Assembly (NCBI GenBank): GCA_016186795.1
Contig: JACPKY010000002.1
Coordinates: 861,892 to 925,891 of the forward strand
Length of the DNA: 64,000 nucleotides
DNA from: Candidatus Gottesmanbacteria bacterium
GTDB lineage: Bacteria; Patescibacteriota; Microgenomatia; 2-02-FULL-39-11
Direction of reading: 5' to 3'
The position numbers were made by a program, and so were the translations under genes. Below the pieces are notes generated by a model. It was given only the letters and a program-made list of their open reading frames with translations, was not told the DNA's origin and searched no databases. This document shows, piece after piece, positions 24,896 through 34,594 of this stretch (its first letter is position 1; the number at the start of each line of letters is the position of its first letter).

Positions 24896-24916
24896 AAAAT
24901 CCCGAGGGGCGAAGTG

Positions 24917-25311
24917 TGGAGATGTCCGGTATTGAGCCGGAGTCCGAAGTAACAATTCGAAAATGTCTACAAGCGTAGTCAATACTATAAAAGCGTGGTC
25001 TTTATTGACAAAGACGATTCACGACAGTGTTGGTCTAGAATCCTCCGAAATCAACCGACCAGTTGATTTCTGACGTCCTGACTGTGTTTACACCGATACC
25101 TCTCCATCAGGAGAGAGAACTACCGATGCATGCTGAGGCGTAAGATTTACGCGTAGGCATGAGCAAGTTGTCGTCCGCCGGTTAAGGCATCGAGAGCAAC
25201 AAGCTTTTCTGCTGATTCATTAGCAGGTATGTTTGGTAATGTTTTACGGCTTTCTTACCACCGCCGGCTTGCAATTTTCAAAGTGCTCGCTTCGTCGAAC
25301 GAAGCATCCCC
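24917..25311 (-). ncRNA. ssrA: tmRNA (SsrA), one-piece
   Basis: Minus read begins GGGGATGCTTCGTTCGACGAAGCG (cf. GGGGCUGAUUCUGGAUUCGACGGG) and ends ...TCCGG-CTCAATA-CCGGA-CATCTCC-A (T-arm plus acceptor with G3:U wobble typical of Ala identity); immediately downstream of smpB; CCA not encoded. Confidence 0.75.
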
Positions 25312-28397: not shown

Positions 28398-30175
28398 TAT
28401 CTTTTCTCAATATTATATAACGGACCTACAATTTGGATGTTTGCTGGAGCACGAAGGTTGAAGAAATTACTAAACTCTGCTCCGTCAAAACTTACGCTTC
28501 CTCCGTCTCCGGAAATATTGACACGTGTCGTTTTCCCAACCCCTTTATCCCACTCGATTGAAACACTGGAAACACTTTGTAAGGGATTCTCACCACGGCT
28601 TTGAAGTTCTTGTCGAACTCGACCTGCATCCCATGTATCAACCCCGTCGGGATTTGGTTTATCTACTTGGGAAAGATGTTTTTGGGTCGATCCATCCTTC
28701 TTTGCAAGCCGTAGGACATTGACTATGTCAGCAAGTTCATCACTTTTAAGCCAGGCACTCTTTCCGTACTGACTTCGAAATCCCTGTGCTGCATAAAAAC
28801 AGGGAGATTCACGATCGTATGAACGATCGGCAAGGTCACCAAAACTCCCAATATCACCAGAAGTATCTCTCATCCGTTTTGTATATGAACGGTTACTTCC
28901 CCACACATCACCTGATGTAAAGGTGTACCCGCCAAAGGTCGATGCGTACCATGCCTTTATCGCCGCTCCATCTCGTACCATCACTTCTCCCTCTGTTTCT
29001 TTCACAGCTTTTTCCCAATTTCCACCTTTATTACCACCTTTGTAAACCTGACAGGCTTGGGTCGTGCAGATTTCACTTGCGCCATTATTGGTATACGCAA
29101 GCGCATATGATCTAGCAGCCACAACTTGTGCTTTCAAAGCTTCCAAAGGCCAACTTTCCGGCATTTCATAGATACCTAAGAGATAATCATCTAAGTCTTT
29201 TTCTCCATGACCCTGAACTTTAATTTTCATATGGGGATCCTTTTTCTCGTAGGAAATACCATCAAAGTATGCACCAAGTATATCTCGGTATGACTGTCCG
29301 GCTTTGGCCCTTCCATATGCTCCATACTGATTCAAACCAACGCGATGAGGAATACCATAAGTAAATGCTGCAAACGCTGGAGAAAATCCAGGGTCAATTT
29401 TCCGATCATCGGTACAATAGAGAGGACCTGCCCCAAGGCTCGTTGGAAGATTTAAACTTCCGAACTTTTCGGCGAGTAACTGCTGTTGTTTGGCAGAAAG
29501 CTGGGCAATTTGTGTCGATAAAGCAGTCTGATACTTCTTTGCTCCGGAAATTTCTTTTTCCAAAAATCCGGCTTGCTTATCCGTTTCCTCTCTAATTTTT
29601 GCAAGTCTTGCCTTCTCATTTTCTAACTGCTGTTTTTTTTCTTCCAGACCTTTGACATACAAAACAATCTGGACAATGGTATCCCGGTCGTTTTGTACCA
29701 CTTTTTTCTGGTATCCTAACACCCGGATAGTCTGTGGTAAATTTTGGCTCATAAGAAGGAAGATGCCCGGAGAGGAAAACGAAGTTTTTGATTTATACAT
29801 TTCCCGTACTTTTTGCCCCAAAAGCTCAGAGGCGGTTACGAGAAGTTGTTCTCCTTCTGCAACGAGTGCTTCTTTCCGCTTCACTTCCTTTTCTATTCCA
29901 TCAGTCCGGCGTTTGATATCCGCAAGAGTATCTTTCAGCTTAGAAAGACTGCCTTCAAGTGGAGTTGTTGCAGCAACAGAAAGTTCAAGAGCATGCTTGA
30001 GATCCGAAAGTTGCTTTTCCACATCGGCGAGTTCATCAGCGTATACCCGGGTCTTGGGTGAAAAGATAGAAGCAATGAAGATGCTTATTAAAACAAAGAA
30101 AATAAAAAGTTTTTTTGCGGACAGTTGGAAATGCATACTGCGACCTAAAAATGGTAATACTTTGAGTCTTTCCAT
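28397..30175 (-). CDS. SpoIID/LytB-domain protein with N-terminal signal/TM and long coiled-coil
   Basis: 592 aa; coiled-coil residues about 40-230; C-terminal SpoIID block DYLLGIYEMPESWPLEALKAQVVAARSYA...ICTTQACQVY. Confidence 0.65.
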   Translation of the reverse strand: MERLKVLPFLGRSMHFQLSAKKLFIFFVLISIFIASIFSPKTRVYADELADVEKQLSDLKHALELSVAATTPLEGSLSKLKDTLADIKRRTDGIEKEVKRKEALVAEGEQLLVTASELLGQKVREMYKSKTSFSSPGIFLLMSQNLPQTIRVLGYQKKVVQNDRDTIVQIVLYVKGLEEKKQQLENEKARLAKIREETDKQAGFLEKEISGAKKYQTALSTQIAQLSAKQQQLLAEKFGSLNLPTSLGAGPLYCTDDRKIDPGFSPAFAAFTYGIPHRVGLNQYGAYGRAKAGQSYRDILGAYFDGISYEKKDPHMKIKVQGHGEKDLDDYLLGIYEMPESWPLEALKAQVVAARSYALAYTNNGASEICTTQACQVYKGGNKGGNWEKAVKETEGEVMVRDGAAIKAWYASTFGGYTFTSGDVWGSNRSYTKRMRDTSGDIGSFGDLADRSYDRESPCFYAAQGFRSQYGKSAWLKSDELADIVNVLRLAKKDGSTQKHLSQVDKPNPDGVDTWDAGRVRQELQSRGENPLQSVSSVSIEWDKGVGKTTRVNISGDGGSVSFDGAEFSNFFNLRAPANIQIVGPLYNIEKR

Positions 30176-30217
30176 TATACAATAGCGAATTGTTTTGATA
30201 CACTTAAAGTACTGCCC

Positions 30218-30694
30218 ATGAGAAAAGTACTCCTATTTGTTTTTTTACTTTCTTTTTTCCTCTCTCCACCTCCAATTTTTTCGGCAGTCACCCCAACAAC
30301 ATCGGCAATTAGCCCGCAGCCATCGTGTGATCTCTGCGGTTGGTGCAATCAAGCAGTAAACCCCAAACCTTCTAATTGGGATGCATGCCAGGCATGCATC
30401 GCACAACCCCGCGGATATTATACGGTTTTTGGCTGTTTCTCAACCGATCCGACAGGTGCTCCATTTGTCCAGGCAATTTTAACGCTTGTAGTGGGAGTTG
30501 CAGGAGGAATTGCTTTCTTGGCATTCTTAGCTGGCGCTGCAACGGTACTTACATCAACCGGAAACCCAGAGAAACTATCTTCGGGAAAAGAAACAATTAT
30601 TTCCTCTCTTATCGGGCTTCTTCTTATACTCTTTTCTATATTTTTACTTCGGGTCGTCGGAGTTGACGTATTACAAATTCCTGGATTTGGGTAA
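30218..30694 (+). CDS. TrbC/VirB2-like (T4SS-pilin-type) small protein with Cys-rich pre-domain
   Basis: 158 aa; signal peptide, CDLCGWC...ACQAC...GCFSTD module, then two hydrophobic helices separated by LTSTGNPEKLSSGKE loop. Confidence 0.55.
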   Translation: MRKVLLFVFLLSFFLSPPPIFSAVTPTTSAISPQPSCDLCGWCNQAVNPKPSNWDACQACIAQPRGYYTVFGCFSTDPTGAPFVQAILTLVVGVAGGIAFLAFLAGAATVLTSTGNPEKLSSGKETIISSLIGLLLILFSIFLLRVVGVDVLQIPGFG

Positions 30695-30699
30695 AAATA
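30663..30699. repeat. 38-bp direct repeat, left copy (3' end of pilin-like gene plus RBS region)
   Basis: gttgacgtattacaaattcctggatttgggtaaaaata vs 31288..31325 (35/38 identical). Confidence 0.7.
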
Positions 30700-30700
30700 C

Positions 30701-31222
30701 ATGAAAAAACCTATATATTATGCATTTATTGACAGTCAGAATTTAAATCTCGGTATTCATGATTGCGGCTGGAAACTCGATTTTGCCAGATTTTACGTTT
30801 ATTTAAAAGATAAATATAAAGTTGCAAAAGCATTTCTTTTCATCGGATACGTCGCTGGAAACGAAGTGTTATACACTTCTTTGCAAAAAGCAGGATATAT
30901 TGTTATCTTCAAACCTACTCTTGAATTTAAAAAAGAAGGAAAAACCTATACTAAAGGAAACGTAGATGCAGAATTGGTGCTGCATACGATGATAGAGTAT
31001 CCAAACTATAACAAGACAATCATCGTATCAGGAGATGGAGATTTCCATTGCCTTATTGAATATCTGGAGAAGAAAAATAAACTGTTTCACATTCTTATTC
31101 CGAACCCCCACAAATACTCAGCACTTCTTAGGAAATTTCATAAATATTTCATTTATATTTATTCGTTAAAAAGAAAACTAAGCATAAAAAAGAGAGGGAG
31201 TAACCTTCGGACGAAACCTTAG
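30701..31222 (+). CDS. NYN-domain (LabA/PIN-like) ribonuclease family protein
   Basis: 173 aa; YAFIDSQNL...GNVDAELVL...VSGDGDF acidic residue blocks typical of NYN domain. Confidence 0.65.
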   Translation: MKKPIYYAFIDSQNLNLGIHDCGWKLDFARFYVYLKDKYKVAKAFLFIGYVAGNEVLYTSLQKAGYIVIFKPTLEFKKEGKTYTKGNVDAELVLHTMIEYPNYNKTIIVSGDGDFHCLIEYLEKKNKLFHILIPNPHKYSALLRKFHKYFIYIYSLKRKLSIKKRGSNLRTKP

Positions 31223-31287
31223 GTGTGCCCTCTCATCGTGATTAAGTTGGTATTATAGTACATAATATGCAAAATATCAACTGCCAA

Positions 31288-31325
31288 GTAGACATATTAC
31301 AAATTCCTGGATTTGGGTAGAAATA
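31288..31325. repeat. 38-bp direct repeat, right copy (remnant pilin C-terminal codons VDILQIPGFG-stop)
   Basis: gtagacatattacaaattcctggatttgggtagaaata. Confidence 0.7.
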
Positions 31326-31330
31326 TTATT

Positions 31331-32896
31331 ATGAATGAGTTTAGGCTAAAATATCAGATAGTTTCTCACGCAGTGAATCTGTCATACCTCGTATGTGGAA
31401 GTCGCATTTTAATTCGCGCATATAAATCCTTTCTAGTCTTGTTGACCTCAGTCTTATTGTTTATTGTTTCCTCTTTTTCCCTCTCCCCTGTTTATGCAGC
31501 AGCAAATTGTGGAGGTTTTACTTTCAATGTAACACCTGCCGAATCTAAAATAGGAGATCATACTATTTATTCTAATACCACTAACATAGAAATTGGTTTT
31601 GGTCTCAATCATCCTCCTGATGCCCCTGATCCTGATCCTGCTAACAACGGATTTGTTGTAGCTGCTGATGGAGGCGGCCAAAACGATTACGTTTCCACAC
31701 CTCAGCTTATTACCGATACGCAACGTAGTGTGGGACATTGGGATATATACGTAAAGATTGACAATAACGATAAGTATTCTGCTCAATTTCAGACCCGTTC
31801 ACACGCTCTAAACCTTTATCGTGTTTCTGATTTGGTTCCATTTGATACTTCAAAGCGGCCTCCGCCGGATGTGCTTGCAGGCGCAATCCCTGTTTGCACA
31901 TATACTTATCAAGTCATCCCACTTCCAACACCTACTCTGGCATATGTTCCATGCAATTTAAATTTTCGTATGCAAGACTCTCGAGGAAACATTTTGGATA
32001 AACCGACACTAGATGCTGTTTATTGGGTAACGGGAACTATCTCAAATATGCCCGATAGTCCAATTACTTACGATTCCTCAGGTAATGCTTGGAGTAGACT
32101 CTATTTTGGAGACCTCACTGTAGGTAATCGATCTACAGAAGAATATACTCCTGCAGACAAACAGACGATTTTCAAGTATATTGGTACATTTCCTCAACCA
32201 GGTTCTTATAGAGTTACATACGACATCAAATCCCAGACAGTCCAATGTATCCCAACGGACGAGTATGGTGTCGGAGGAGGGGTAACCTGTCCCAGAGACA
32301 AAACTGGAAAAGTACCAACGGATATTAACGGGCATTGCGAGGCTACCATAAATGTTGATGAATCCGGAGGATCTATCGACATTCCAAAAGTTCCGCCGCA
32401 ATGCATACGACAGGGTGGTCCTGATACTGACCCAGAATGTACATATCCTTACTGTAATGACAAATGTTCTTCTTGTCCCTGGTGTACAAATGTTGCACCA
32501 GGCATAAAAATTCCTAATTTAAAACCTCTTTGTGACCAATTACCAAGATCACCAGTAGACTACCAATCTGCCTGCAACACTTGTGTAAACAATACAGATG
32601 AAACAAAAAAAGGGATCTGGACCGGAATAGGGTGTATTTCCACAAATATGAATACATTTCTTGAAGAGTATGTTTTTCGTTTCGGTCCGGGAATTGCAGG
32701 CGGAATTGCCTTTCTCTATTTCCTTTATGGCTGTTTCCTCATCCTGACCTCGGCAGGAGACCCGGAAAAAATTGCCCAAGGAAAAGAAATAATCGTCTCT
32801 GCCCTCTCAGGACTTCTCCTTGTCATCTTTTCTGTCTTTCTCCTTCGTACGATCGGTGTTGATATTCTCGGTCTTCCTGAATTTACTAAACCGTAA
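31331..32896 (+). CDS. Large (about 520 aa) secreted Cys-rich protein ending in a TrbC/VirB2-like pilin module (putative pilus tip/adhesin-like paralog)
   Basis: ORF track start 31313 is TTG; ATG at 31331 (MNEFRL); signal/TM, about 400-aa domain with more than 20 Cys incl. CPWC...ACNTC...GCISTN, then GIAGGIAFLYF...LTSAGDPEKIAQGKE...two-helix pilin module nearly identical in pattern to 30218 gene. Confidence 0.55.
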   Translation: MNEFRLKYQIVSHAVNLSYLVCGSRILIRAYKSFLVLLTSVLLFIVSSFSLSPVYAAANCGGFTFNVTPAESKIGDHTIYSNTTNIEIGFGLNHPPDAPDPDPANNGFVVAADGGGQNDYVSTPQLITDTQRSVGHWDIYVKIDNNDKYSAQFQTRSHALNLYRVSDLVPFDTSKRPPPDVLAGAIPVCTYTYQVIPLPTPTLAYVPCNLNFRMQDSRGNILDKPTLDAVYWVTGTISNMPDSPITYDSSGNAWSRLYFGDLTVGNRSTEEYTPADKQTIFKYIGTFPQPGSYRVTYDIKSQTVQCIPTDEYGVGGGVTCPRDKTGKVPTDINGHCEATINVDESGGSIDIPKVPPQCIRQGGPDTDPECTYPYCNDKCSSCPWCTNVAPGIKIPNLKPLCDQLPRSPVDYQSACNTCVNNTDETKKGIWTGIGCISTNMNTFLEEYVFRFGPGIAGGIAFLYFLYGCFLILTSAGDPEKIAQGKEIIVSALSGLLLVIFSVFLLRTIGVDILGLPEFTKP

Positions 32897-32934
32897 CTAT
32901 TCACAAGGAAACTATGGTACCATAAAGAAAATCT

Positions 32935-33261
32935 ATGGAACTTGCACAAATATTAAATATCCCGGGCGGAAAGGTTCAGGGCCCACTGCCTACTATTGAT
33001 GCTACGGGGAACACCCGTTTTACTGACCTTGCCTCTTTTGTCACCAACCTTCTCCCTTACATCTTTCCAATATCCGGAGTATTCTTACTTTTTTATCTTA
33101 TCTGGGGAGGTTTTAGCTACCTCACGTCAATGGGAGACCCGAAGAAAGCCGCAGCAGGACAAGCAAAAATCACTAACGCTATTTTGGGATTCCTCCTTAT
33201 TTTTGTCGCATTTCTCATTGTCCAAATTGTGGATTACCTGTTTGGACTAAACCTCTACTAA
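32935..33261 (+). CDS. TrbC/VirB2-like (T4SS-pilin-type) small protein
   Basis: 108 aa; two TM helices separated by LTSMGDPKKAAAGQAK loop. Confidence 0.5.
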   Translation: MELAQILNIPGGKVQGPLPTIDATGNTRFTDLASFVTNLLPYIFPISGVFLLFYLIWGGFSYLTSMGDPKKAAAGQAKITNAILGFLLIFVAFLIVQIVDYLFGLNLY

Positions 33262-33262
33262 G

Positions 33263-34594
33263 TCATTTCTCAAAAAACGCAGGGGATGATCCGCCGGGAA
33301 TGACGCGGACGACGTTTAACTTGGCATTATTTTCCAATGTATAAAGAGTCAACTGTTGTGTTCCGCTTTGGAGAGGATTTGGCCGAACTCCGAGAAGCCG
33401 AAAGTCGTCAACCATAAAATCATCTTTTTGCAATGCATTTGGACCAATGATCTGCACGGAGTTTTGACCAAGATCGTATATGCCAACGAGTGGAAGGTTC
33501 GCACTATATTGGTATGGGACAAGAAGTTTTTCCGCATTTAGAAACCAGATAGCAAAGGGTAGAAATCCTTTATCGAGCGTAGATTCAGGAAGATTTGTGG
33601 TACCCATATCAACCAGTGTCGGTTTGGAATTTAGTACTCGTTGCCCTGTTCCATCTATTCCCATAATGTAAAGGTCGTTTTTTTGACTCCCGGTAACACT
33701 ATAGAGAATCTTGGTCTTGTCAGGAGATACCGACATTGCCGAAATAGAAGAATTGGCAACAAGAAGTTTTGCTGATGGGCTTGCAGGATTGACACTGCTT
33801 ATCCCATCAGACCCCCGGAAAAGAACAGTTTTTTCATTCACCCACTCAACTTGAGAAATAGAGGGAGACCGCTTCAGAAGTGAAGTTGCAACTGCCGAAA
33901 CTGAAGAAACTTGGTAACTATCCAGATTATATGTGGCACCTTGCGTCAGAAAAACGAAAGAATCGAAGGAGGGAGACCAGGAATAGTCAGCAATTGCTGC
34001 AGAATTACTTTCTGGGTAGTAGTAAAACGTTTTTTTCTCCCGATCGTAGACTGTCAATTGGGTCAAATTCCCTACTTTGGGAAGCCAGGATAAGTATCTT
34101 CCTGAAAAAGACCAGGAAAGATTTCCTCCCGCTGGTGAAGTATTTTTGGCCAAAAGTGTAACAAATGAAAAATCACTATGGTAAATATCACCATCTTTAA
34201 TAAATGCTAACCGTCCTACCTCAACTGGCGTGATAGTTGCCGATACCGATGCAATAGGTGAAAGCGTTGGTTCAATTGTGGCAGTTGGAAGAAGAATTGG
34301 CGTTGCAGAAGGCCTCGGAGGAGGGGTTGGAGTCGCAGATTTTTTAGATGCCCCCCCTACAAAAAGGAGAAATCCTCCAAGAATAATGATAAGAAGAAGT
34401 AAACCCCCTATGATAAACGGAAGAAACTTTTTCAAAGGATTGACACTTTCTGGAAATTGAGGAGGTGGAGTCTCGGGGGGACCATCAGATGGAGGCGCCT
34501 CACCCTGGGGCACGTCTACCGATGGGGTTTCTACTGGAGTTTCGGAGGGTACATCTTGTGGAGGAGCCTCCTGGGATTGGGCAGTTTGATCCAT
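33263..34594 (-). CDS. TolB-like beta-propeller (PD40 repeat) protein with Pro-rich N-terminus and TM anchor
   Basis: 443 aa; Pro/Glu-rich N-term, TM FLPFIIGGLLLLIIILGGFLLF, Pro/Thr linker, C-terminal repeats like KTKILYSVTGSQKNDLYIMGIDG. Confidence 0.5.
   Translation of the reverse strand: MDQTAQSQEAPPQDVPSETPVETPSVDVPQGEAPPSDGPPETPPPQFPESVNPLKKFLPFIIGGLLLLIIILGGFLLFVGGASKKSATPTPPPRPSATPILLPTATIEPTLSPIASVSATITPVEVGRLAFIKDGDIYHSDFSFVTLLAKNTSPAGGNLSWSFSGRYLSWLPKVGNLTQLTVYDREKKTFYYYPESNSAAIADYSWSPSFDSFVFLTQGATYNLDSYQVSSVSAVATSLLKRSPSISQVEWVNEKTVLFRGSDGISSVNPASPSAKLLVANSSISAMSVSPDKTKILYSVTGSQKNDLYIMGIDGTGQRVLNSKPTLVDMGTTNLPESTLDKGFLPFAIWFLNAEKLLVPYQYSANLPLVGIYDLGQNSVQIIGPNALQKDDFMVDDFRLLGVRPNPLQSGTQQLTLYTLENNAKLNVVRVIPGGSSPAFFEK

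Follow-up and report, generated by a model that had tools for sequence, protein, structure and literature searches.

A NYN nuclease gene with a predicted convergent antisense RNA as a probable repeat-bounded insertion in a VirB2-like pilin operon of Candidatus Gottesmanbacteria

Toxin-antitoxin (TA) systems of type I whose antisense RNA lies over the 3' end of the toxin mRNA include txpA/RatA and bsrG/SR4, and SymE/SymR and RalR/RalA are type I systems with a nuclease as toxin. Type III systems (ToxIN, CptIN, TenpIN) combine a protein of the endoribonuclease type with a non-coding, structured RNA, which is located upstream and co-transcribed. Among the NYN domain proteins, in which four acidic residues are predicted to bind a metal ion, the LabA-like cluster (NYN.COG1432) has been listed as of function unknown; its members were linked to regulation and to neighbourhoods of tRNA/rRNA processing, and a 2017 review stated that no member of PF01936 had been studied as a nuclease (PMC5499597). 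VirB2 pilin genes of Microgenomatia form tandem arrays, at times with non-pilin genes between them, and one VirB2-like pilin array is reported there as essential in a cultivated relative (PMC12102498). Here we describe a locus in a 64-kb stretch of a genome of Candidatus Gottesmanbacteria, a lineage of the Candidate Phyla Radiation (CPR)/Patescibacteria; this whole stretch is referred to as the window. Between two genes of such a pilin array, the window carries a cassette composed of a LabA-like NYN gene and a predicted small antisense RNA gene. In its predicted action the module resembles a TA system of type I or III, and in its placing an integron cassette, but it fails defining features of each.

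The features of the locus are listed in Table 1. The two-gene module is bracketed almost exactly by two copies of a 39-nt direct repeat, which are 92% identical by repeat detection and can also be written as a 38-mer (30662-30699 and 31288-31325) with 35/38 identity. Copy 1 consists of the last 10 codons of the 158-aa pilin gene (VDVLQIPGFG), the stop codon at 30692-30694 and 5 further nt, and copy 2 is followed by 5 nt and then by the ATG (31331) of the 521-aa gene. A pattern search with at most three mismatches found exactly two copies and no further one in the 64-kb window, while 0/100 shuffled sequences yielded two matches. Because 39 bp of the target stand on both sides, the NYN gene and the displaced pilin gene are preceded by the same sequence. 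In fact, the NYN gene now has the upstream sequence that formerly lay before the large pilin gene, and copy 2 restores that sequence to the displaced gene. Both outer junctions are found with 100% identity in independent short-read assemblies of other samples: the one from pilin to NYN in L001-L003, and the one from the RNA through copy 2 to the large pilin in L004/L005.

An earlier note, made from the sequence of this DNA, had located both repeat copies, as repeat detection and pattern search bear out, with a start (30663) that was one base off. Its figures of 35/38 identity and 588 bp between the copies (30700-31287, a module of ~590 bp) are correct, and so is its placing of copy 2 directly before the large pilin-domain gene. 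It had counted a single gene between the repeats, but the interval holds two, the NYN gene and the convergent small-RNA gene. The pilin domain that it had named is present in the flanking genes, all three of which exceed the PF18895 (T4SS_pilin) cut-off of 26.6 bits; these are VirB2-like pilins of a type IV secretion system (T4SS), not type IV pilins. Moreover, a short open reading frame (ORF) ends in copy 2, which may preserve translational coupling to the next gene.

Table 1. Features of the pilin locus and of the cassette, with positions in the window.
Feature	Position	Strand	Remarks
VirB2-like T4SS pilin gene (host), 158 aa	30218..30694	+	PF18895, 30.1 bits; orthologues, synteny
Direct repeat, copy 1	30661..30699	+	Pilin 3' end, stop, 5 nt spacer; ends 1 nt before the NYN ATG
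NYN gene (LabA-like, PF01936), 173 aa, promoterless	30701..31222	+	Starts 6 nt after the pilin stop
Predicted cis-antisense small RNA, ~57 nt	31187..31244	-	Ends inferred from promoter and terminator; overlaps the last 11 NYN codons and stop
Predicted sigma-70-type promoter of the small RNA, TTGATA-17-TATAAT	31280->31252	-	11/12 consensus positions
Mini-ORF MQNINCQVDILQIPGFG*	31267..31320	+	17 codons; its 3' end lies in repeat copy 2, with the stop 10 nt ahead of the large-pilin ATG
Direct repeat, copy 2	31287..31325	+	36/39 identical to copy 1; starts 4 nt beyond the -35 box of the small RNA
Displaced host gene, 521 aa, C-terminal T4SS_pilin domain	31331..32896	+	PF18895, 27.2 bits
Third pilin gene of the host array, 108 aa	32935..33261	+	PF18895, 40.1 bits

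Contigs with orthologues of the 158-aa pilin were identified, and metagenomes were searched for such orthologues too. The comparison of orthologous loci, which the earlier note had proposed as a check, shows that most syntenic Gottesmanbacteria loci are without the NYN cassette and have a single pilin 3' end directly before the next pilin gene (L037, L038, L040-L044 and L053). In L037, the pilin stop is followed by 5 nt and then by the large-pilin ATG, and the sites of L038, L040/41, L042/43, L044 and L053 are equally empty. The syntenic order can be read in L038, namely minus-strand SpoIID, then the pilin gene, another gene with a pilin domain, a small pilin, a 430-aa gene, an NTP-transferase, a prenyltransferase and MVD; the second of these pilin-domain genes encodes 142 aa in this locus and 462-521 aa in other loci. 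L036 is empty too, yet a second, relic pilin end (ILRIPGFG*) occurs ~40 nt past its pilin stop. At L036:1190-1300, this relic is a mini-ORF, MKQFNNEAMSLTILRIPGFG*, analogous to that at 31267-31320 of the window, with no cassette between the real stop and the relic, which may be the scar of a cassette loss.

Occupied sites form a minority. L035 is the closest relative (pilin 77% and SpoIID 84% identical), and there the pilin 3' end occurs four times and delimits three cassettes, the first with NYN1 and its RNA, the second with a 156-aa gene that faces a convergent promoter and terminator, and the third with NYN2 and its RNA. In L052, four pilin 3'-end copies bound three NYN genes that belong to three subfamilies, and in L051 an NYN2-like cassette is flanked by a direct repeat, at least 95 nt long, which derives from the spacer after the pilin gene. 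The cassette genes in the window and in the arrays of L035 and L052 start 2-6 nt after a pilin or relic-pilin stop, and the relics of L035 retain up to 18 pilin codons. The NYN protein of the window is just 56% identical to NYN1 at the same site of L035, compared with 77-84% for the host genes, and the site was therefore hit independently. Repeat copies within one genome are closest to each other (30/33 positions in the window, 30-32/33 in L035), while the repeat agrees with the 3' ends of orthologues in other empty-site genomes at 18-24 of 33. This argues for duplication in place or concerted evolution, and not for a relic of a distant donor or of another paralog. Cassette insertion with target duplication, the reading preferred in the earlier note, is thus supported by the empty sites together with the independently occupied minority, and we hold it very likely that the module was acquired by insertion with in situ duplication of its target.

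The arrays gave further observations. The middle cassette of L035 (L035:6037-6610) encodes the 156-aa protein and has a convergent promoter (6603->6575) and a terminator-like hairpin over the stop codon. This protein has no Pfam match, and its relatives were found solely in CPR/Microgenomatia-type assemblies, mostly on contigs of 1-2 kb. Its structure model is of high confidence (pLDDT 94), with RNase H domains as the best, though weak, matches (E ~5e-3, TM 0.4-0.5); judged from this model, a putative RNase H-like cassette fits the theme of a nuclease with an antisense RNA. In L052, the third NYN cassette (L052:6430-6620) has a composite appearance: its NYN ORF is extended at the C-terminus, and this extension contains a promoter and terminator on the minus strand (6504->6440); then comes a second small-RNA unit of the window's type (6610-6516), and the ORF ends in KKRGSNLRTKP, the same tail as in the NYN protein of the window. 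Moreover, a PhdYeFM/ParE pair and a CopG-type antitoxin gene are located between pilin genes of the L035 array (L035:9221-10702). The pilin operon of L035 collects several kinds of TA modules.

The second gene of the module is read on the minus strand. The predicted RNA begins with the 5' tail AUCACGAU, continues as a long hairpin (GAGAGGG...CCCUCUC, with the loop region GGUUUCGUCC) and ends in a U6 tail; its intrinsic terminator lies over the stop codon of NYN. In a promoter scan, the promoter of this RNA is the best promoter-like site within 30000-33400. The 3' flanks of 29 reference-genome NYN loci share a conserved block, which is located after the stop codon of NYN or across it. Its minus-strand reading is TTGACA, 17 nt, TATAAT, ~7 nt, ATCACGAT, then a long hairpin with a T-run behind it. 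Across the 29 aligned units, TTG in the -35 box and TA...T in the -10 box show little or no variation and stand at a fixed spacing, and the spacer sequence is variable. The transcribed part, aligned for 27 sequences, forms a two-helix hairpin with compensatory changes in 14/18 pairs. Compensatory cells numbered 85 against 32 expected, a value reached by 0/500 shuffles, and slid controls were clearly lower; RNAalifold, independently of this count of pairs, reported 8/11 pairs as compensated. Since G-U pairs exceed A-C pairs by 45:20 in the hairpin alignment, the minus-strand RNA is favoured as the folded species. For the predicted RNA of the window (~31244->31187), the folding energy is -19.5 kcal/mol with z = -3.3. 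A U-run follows the stem on the minus strand only; on the sense strand, an A-run precedes the stem and no U-run follows it, so that the hairpin should not terminate transcription of the operon. The NYN stop codon precedes the hairpin in many members, and coding constraint therefore cannot explain the conservation of the hairpin; in some members, it encodes part of the C-terminal tail of NYN. Taken together, we think that this is quite probably a genuine antisense RNA gene.

A profile of the RNA unit matched once per NYN locus, always convergent, at ~30 other loci, and these matches also include loci outside its training set (L066-L070, L052, L035, L025, L032 and L009, among others). No unit was found by the profile in the rest of the window, and none as an orphan in the empty-site loci. 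Divergent NYN subfamilies, with 25-35% identity, have the same layout of gene and convergent promoter. The minus-strand promoters at the right ends of cassettes are the top-scoring ones in every L035 cassette and in two of the three L052 cassettes, and a convergent promoter with a hairpin was read by eye from the sequence in L051, L059 and NYN-B of L052. A scan of the whole window with the 4227 covariance models of Rfam gave nothing at gathering score at the small-RNA site, and a permissive search of 31100-31400 gave only chance-level snoRNA and RUF1 matches. Encoding of a peptide was considered and rejected, as the other sequences do not conserve the 5-codon ORF that the RNA of the window contains. 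In its hairpin DNA, the window (31190-31246) agrees at 100% with L066:5487-5545, a contig assigned to Scalindua rubra, and the NYN proteins of the two are just 82% identical; as far as sequences tell, the predicted RNA is more conserved than the protein in this pair. It is a candidate for a new RNA family in Rfam. We found no prior description of an antisense RNA associated with NYN/COG1432, or of such cassette arrays, in the literature covered, which was incomplete, and one may exist elsewhere.

As the earlier note had stated, the 173-aa protein has a NYN (PIN-like) RNase domain. It matches PF01936 at residues 9-152 with 49.4 bits (cut-off 24.2), which makes it a member of the family with predicted nuclease activity, and it is annotated at NCBI as NYN domain-containing. 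Among 120 homologues, the acidic residues D11, D89 and D112 are conserved in at least 99% and D114 in at least 97%. The only solved relative found by sequence search is PDB 2qip (E = 1e-6), a protein of unknown function. The NYN and HEC-09 models of PADLOC matched weakly, NCBIfam and PHROGs gave no informative match, and the identical-protein look-up of the window's NYN gave none; the context of the NYN locus was taken from look-ups of the 158-aa pilin and the large pilin. The protein is thus like the LabA-like NYN proteins (COG1432, 2qip) in Pfam family and conserved acidic residues, but for that cluster we found no RNA partner and no mobility described in the literature and no Rfam family.

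The protein search scored at least 8000 relatives, many of them on contigs of ~1 kb, and the NYN-plus-RNA unit, with the RNA always convergent, recurs in many unrelated genomes and operons. Among the matches listed, copies in unrelated phyla are 82-85% identical to the NYN of the window. In L066, the gene lies in an island of a SNF2-PLD helicase, MmeI-type restriction-modification and AAA_13, and in L068, a TonB/CobN-bearing contig, it lies inside an ABC-transporter operon. Such identity across unrelated phyla means that the module moves between distant lineages. In L066:1753-10525 and L006, metagenome-assembled genomes assigned to different phyla, NYN and RNA are found between the SNF2/PLD helicase and the MmeI-type restriction-modification genes, followed by AAA_13; their flanks are homologous, and therefore the whole defence island appears to have moved. 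A phage as vehicle was rejected, with no relatives in IMG/VR (searched with the protein and with a 20-mer of the RNA core), GenBank phages or PHROGs, and so was a plasmid, since plasmids hold solely NYN genes of 26-29% identity. A general link of NYN with pilins was likewise rejected: scanned with a profile from Gottesmanbacteria-type pilin C-termini, 0/29 reference-genome NYN loci have a pilin-domain ORF within 3 kb, so the pilin site is a lineage-specific hotspot and not a property of the module.

Flanking repeats were found at few of these places. Of the testable reference-genome NYN loci, 3/24 exceed the cross-locus null (maximum null score 14), namely the window (score 30, 39 nt), L030 (score 22, 28 nt) and L008 (an exact repeat of 17 nt). 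L066 and L068 are likewise without a flanking repeat, so that target duplication is not an obligatory signature of the module and was rejected as a universal one. At L008:879-3500, NYN and RNA are located directly downstream of a reverse transcriptase/bAvd pair resembling a diversity-generating retroelement. This module has on both sides an exact 17-nt direct repeat, TCGGGTAAAAATAGTAA, that shares GGGTAAAAATA with the repeat of the window at the same position relative to the NYN ATG. L001, a contig of the same strain, is identical to the window from upstream of SpoIID through the first 365 nt of NYN, and then switches at ~31065 to a different 3' third of NYN and a different small-RNA unit (L001:6900-7123 compared with window 31065-31290); breaks in further contigs of this strain lie at 31058 and 31194. 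These observations suggest that, in one community, NYN alleles are mosaic or recombinant, or that several near-identical NYN modules occur there.

Within ~6 kb, the neighbouring genes include SpoIID, bPH_2, DUF5657, SmpB, NTP_transferase, a prenyltransferase and MVD. No recombinase or transposase gene is located within ~6 kb on either side, in the strain of the window or in the syntenic loci. The host locus, with three PF18895 genes in a member of Microgenomatia, is itself one of the VirB2-like pilin arrays described for Patescibacteria; non-pilin genes, duplicated pilin 3' ends and RNA are not characterised in the accessible part of that description (PMC12102498). Farther upstream, on the minus strand, a tmRNA gene (24914-25311) and seven tRNA genes (five tRNA-Ser and two tRNA-Arg, within 1450-24197) were observed, and smpB is adjacent, judged from contigs of the same strain.

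Compared with type I TA systems, the likeness of the module is in a protein gene that faces a convergent, separately promoted small RNA with an intrinsic terminator and an overlap at the gene's 3' end, in its compactness and patchy occurrence, and in a toxin candidate that is a nuclease. A cis-antisense RNA with its own promoter and terminator is thus predicted here; the small hydrophobic toxin that is typical, though not universal, of type I is replaced by a NYN domain protein. The differences are that this 173-aa soluble nuclease has no promoter of its own, that the RNA has sequence-conserved tail and loop motifs, and that the NYN family crosses phyla, whereas type I systems are considered narrowly distributed (PMC5367252). 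The likeness to type III systems is in an endoribonuclease-type protein with a structured RNA and in conserved RNA motifs that are compatible with direct recognition by the protein. Unlike them, the window has a single hairpin that is convergent instead of upstream and co-transcribed, no ToxN-fold protein, and no tandem RNA repeats reported in the region. Integron cassettes, pdif modules and the products of tandem accretion resemble the locus in having promoterless single-gene cassettes with expression, as predicted for the locus, from an upstream host promoter, and repeat-cassette-repeat arrays in which the repeat is the 3' end of the target gene, as in tRNA-gene islands. The locus differs from all of these: it has no integrase within ~6 kb, no attI and no attC, its repeats are the variable-length end of the host's own pilin gene, and its NYN cassettes carry their own antisense RNA gene and also occur singly at unrelated sites. 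It is not an insertion sequence or transposon either, having no transposase within ~6 kb, no inverted repeats at the cassette ends, and a duplication that is variable in length or absent.

With respect to function, the small RNA would control NYN either by pairing with the 3' end of the NYN mRNA, as in type I, or by binding the protein, as in type III, and under either mode the module would be a nuclease cassette of a selfish, addictive or defence type. Several hints are toxin-like: a nuclease gene with a strongly promoted convergent small RNA, the patchy distribution across phyla, NYN genes disrupted by a nonsense mutation (L032) or a frameshift (L025) with the RNA unit intact, the ParE/Phd and CopG modules in the L035 array, and the restriction-modification/helicase island around the L066 and L006 copies. 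We regard a TA-like or defence role as a tentative proposal whose chances fall slightly short of even.

Other explanations can be set against the evidence. Copy 2 might be the relic C-terminus of a deleted tandem pilin paralog, with NYN filling the vacated space, which was the alternative named in the earlier note. Tandem arrays with occasional non-pilin genes, as PMC12102498 reports for Microgenomatia, and the up to 18 pilin codons kept in the relics of L035 would suit this. However, the best agreement of copy 2 (30/33) is with the 3' end of the very pilin gene beside it and not with other paralogs or orthologs, and its homology begins just 4 nt beyond the last functional element of the cassette, the small-RNA promoter. 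The duplication also runs past the stop codon into non-coding spacer, the empty orthologous sites have no extra paralog at that position, and the arrays would require the same improbable deletion three times; we consider this reading very improbable. A chimeric join at the repeat that put a foreign NYN into the pilin operon is brought to mind by the same-strain short-read contigs that break inside NYN (31058, 31194) and by the different NYN 3' end of L001. Against such an artefact stand the outer junctions, both 100% identical in several independent samples, the longest exact run between the repeat copies of 25 nt, which is below the usual assembly k-mers, and the equivalent occupied sites in the independent assemblies of L035, L052 and L051, and it is hardly conceivable. 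For the RNA, the hairpin might be no separate gene, but a structure or terminator in the 3' untranslated region of the NYN mRNA, or a protein-binding site, with a fortuitous minus-strand promoter; under this reading, the pilin operon would have recruited NYN as an ordinary enzyme of RNA processing or regulation. Covariation is in fact largely symmetric between strands, the hairpin partly codes for the NYN tail in some members, and LabA-like NYN has the ties to regulation and to tRNA/rRNA processing neighbourhoods mentioned above (PMC5499597). Such a reading accounts poorly for -35 and -10 hexamers conserved at fixed spacing around a variable spacer in 29 loci, for the U-run after the stem and the G-U excess on the minus strand only, and for the many members with a stop codon before the hairpin, where coding constraint is insufficient. 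The patchy distribution and the near-identity across phyla also misfit a housekeeping role, so that we find both halves of this reading improbable.

As to the way of arrival, two readings treat the repeats otherwise than as a footprint of illegitimate insertion. In the one, of the Campbell type, a circle with one repeat copy is looped out, taken up by a related cell and recombined at the pilin 3' end, so that the duplication forms anew; in that case, the repeats are homology arms and not the footprint of a transposition. Single crossovers with variable homology segments would be expected to give variable duplications (28-95 nt), and the near-identical repeat copies within a genome, the mosaic NYN alleles in one population (L001 compared with the window) and the near-identical right ends of cassettes A and C of L052 agree with it. 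It leaves the first arrival at a new site (L008, L030, L051) unexplained, though, and 25-39 nt of homology with mismatches are marginal for RecA-dependent recombination; moreover, among the matches listed, the NYN of the window is most similar to copies in unrelated phyla without pilin flanks. Homologous integration is accordingly an unlikely origin in our opinion. In the other reading, the pilin 3' end is an attachment site for site-specific recombination, and promoterless cassettes are inserted and removed by a recombinase that is encoded elsewhere and acts in trans, resembling an integron, XerCD/integrative mobile elements exploiting Xer (IMEX), pdif, or the tandem accretion of integrative elements, with the repeats as hybrid att sites. 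The repeat-cassette-repeat arrays of L035 and L052 with three cassettes each, the start of cassette genes 2-6 nt past the pilin or relic stop in the window, L035 and L052, the independent acquisition at the same site in three or four lineages, and a core TTACAAATTCC-T-GGATTTGGGTAA, read by eye as an imperfect inverted repeat, all speak for this. But no recombinase gene lies within ~6 kb in the strain of the window or in the syntenic loci, and repeat length and left boundary differ from cassette to cassette (28, 39, ~58, 86 and at least 95 nt). The NYN module also occurs at unrelated non-pilin sites with other repeats (L008, L030) or none (L066, L068, 21/24), and no common att-like motif was found across those sites. 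This reading seems rather unlikely to us.

Overall, the best explanation is likely that an acquired cassette of NYN and antisense RNA, with the nuclease under control of the RNA, entered the pilin operon by illegitimate insertion. For the mechanism, which we propose with low confidence, the insertion would have been a rare, non-site-specific event, for example by template switching. It would have survived because the duplication left the ORF of the pilin intact, and likewise the start region of the downstream gene, which is essential. Selection would then act as a filter for three features: that the module is complete, that the promoterless NYN borrows a start region, and that the downstream pilin keeps its own start region intact. 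NYN would be co-transcribed and translated with the pilin operon, sense transcription would read through to the next pilin gene, and later spread and growth of arrays would take place by recombination between repeats.

Several points weigh against this explanation. The small RNA, its ends and any toxicity of NYN are predictions from sequence. The 5' tail (AUCACGA) and the loop (GGUUUCGUCC) of the RNA are conserved beyond what simple cis-antisense pairing needs, and protein recognition as in type III is therefore an equally live option; such conservation points to a different or additional putative role, for instance in protein binding. The classical toxins of type I are small peptides of the membrane and not nucleases of 173 aa. 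The target duplications, from 17 to at least 95 nt, match no known transposition chemistry, and a flanking repeat is missing at 21/24 NYN loci tested as well as in L066 and L068. Moreover, that three or four lineages have insertions directly behind this pilin gene could reflect a preference for the site and not selection. The three mismatches between the repeat copies indicate an event that was apparently not recent; alternatively, one copy may have come from a close relative by recombination.

A wider conjecture, which we think rather unlikely, is that units of a nuclease and an antisense RNA, with NYN or with the RNase H-like 156-aa protein, form an unrecognised class of tiny recombinase-less mobile cassettes. 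Such cassettes would move between phyla and land directly upstream of start codons inside operons, and would make long variable duplications (17 to at least 95 nt) unlike those of known transposition, possibly by means of the nuclease or the RNA itself. The conserved 3' end of the VirB2-like pilin in CPR would then be an integron-like collecting platform.

In conclusion, the readings of a paralog relic and of an assembly artefact are rejected and insertion with target duplication is supported, while the function and the mechanism of insertion are what we infer. What goes beyond a routine insertion is the combination of a conserved, predicted antisense RNA gene, mobility across phyla, and repeat-bounded arrays at the pilin 3' end. 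The LabA-like NYN proteins are among the largest nuclease families still listed as function unknown, and a tail-to-tail structured antisense RNA gives a testable hypothesis for them, namely an RNA-controlled nuclease that is TA- or defence-like. If this is true and the module is a TA system, it would represent an antisense-RNA system that has an enzyme as its toxin and passes widely from one phylum to another, which would run counter to the view of antisense-regulated systems as narrowly distributed. The repeat-bounded arrays provide natural before-and-after alleles for studying cassette insertion. For the biology of CPR, the locus shows the VirB2-like pilin arrays as hotspots that accumulate putatively selfish nuclease cassettes, in a placing that would preserve the expression of the operon.

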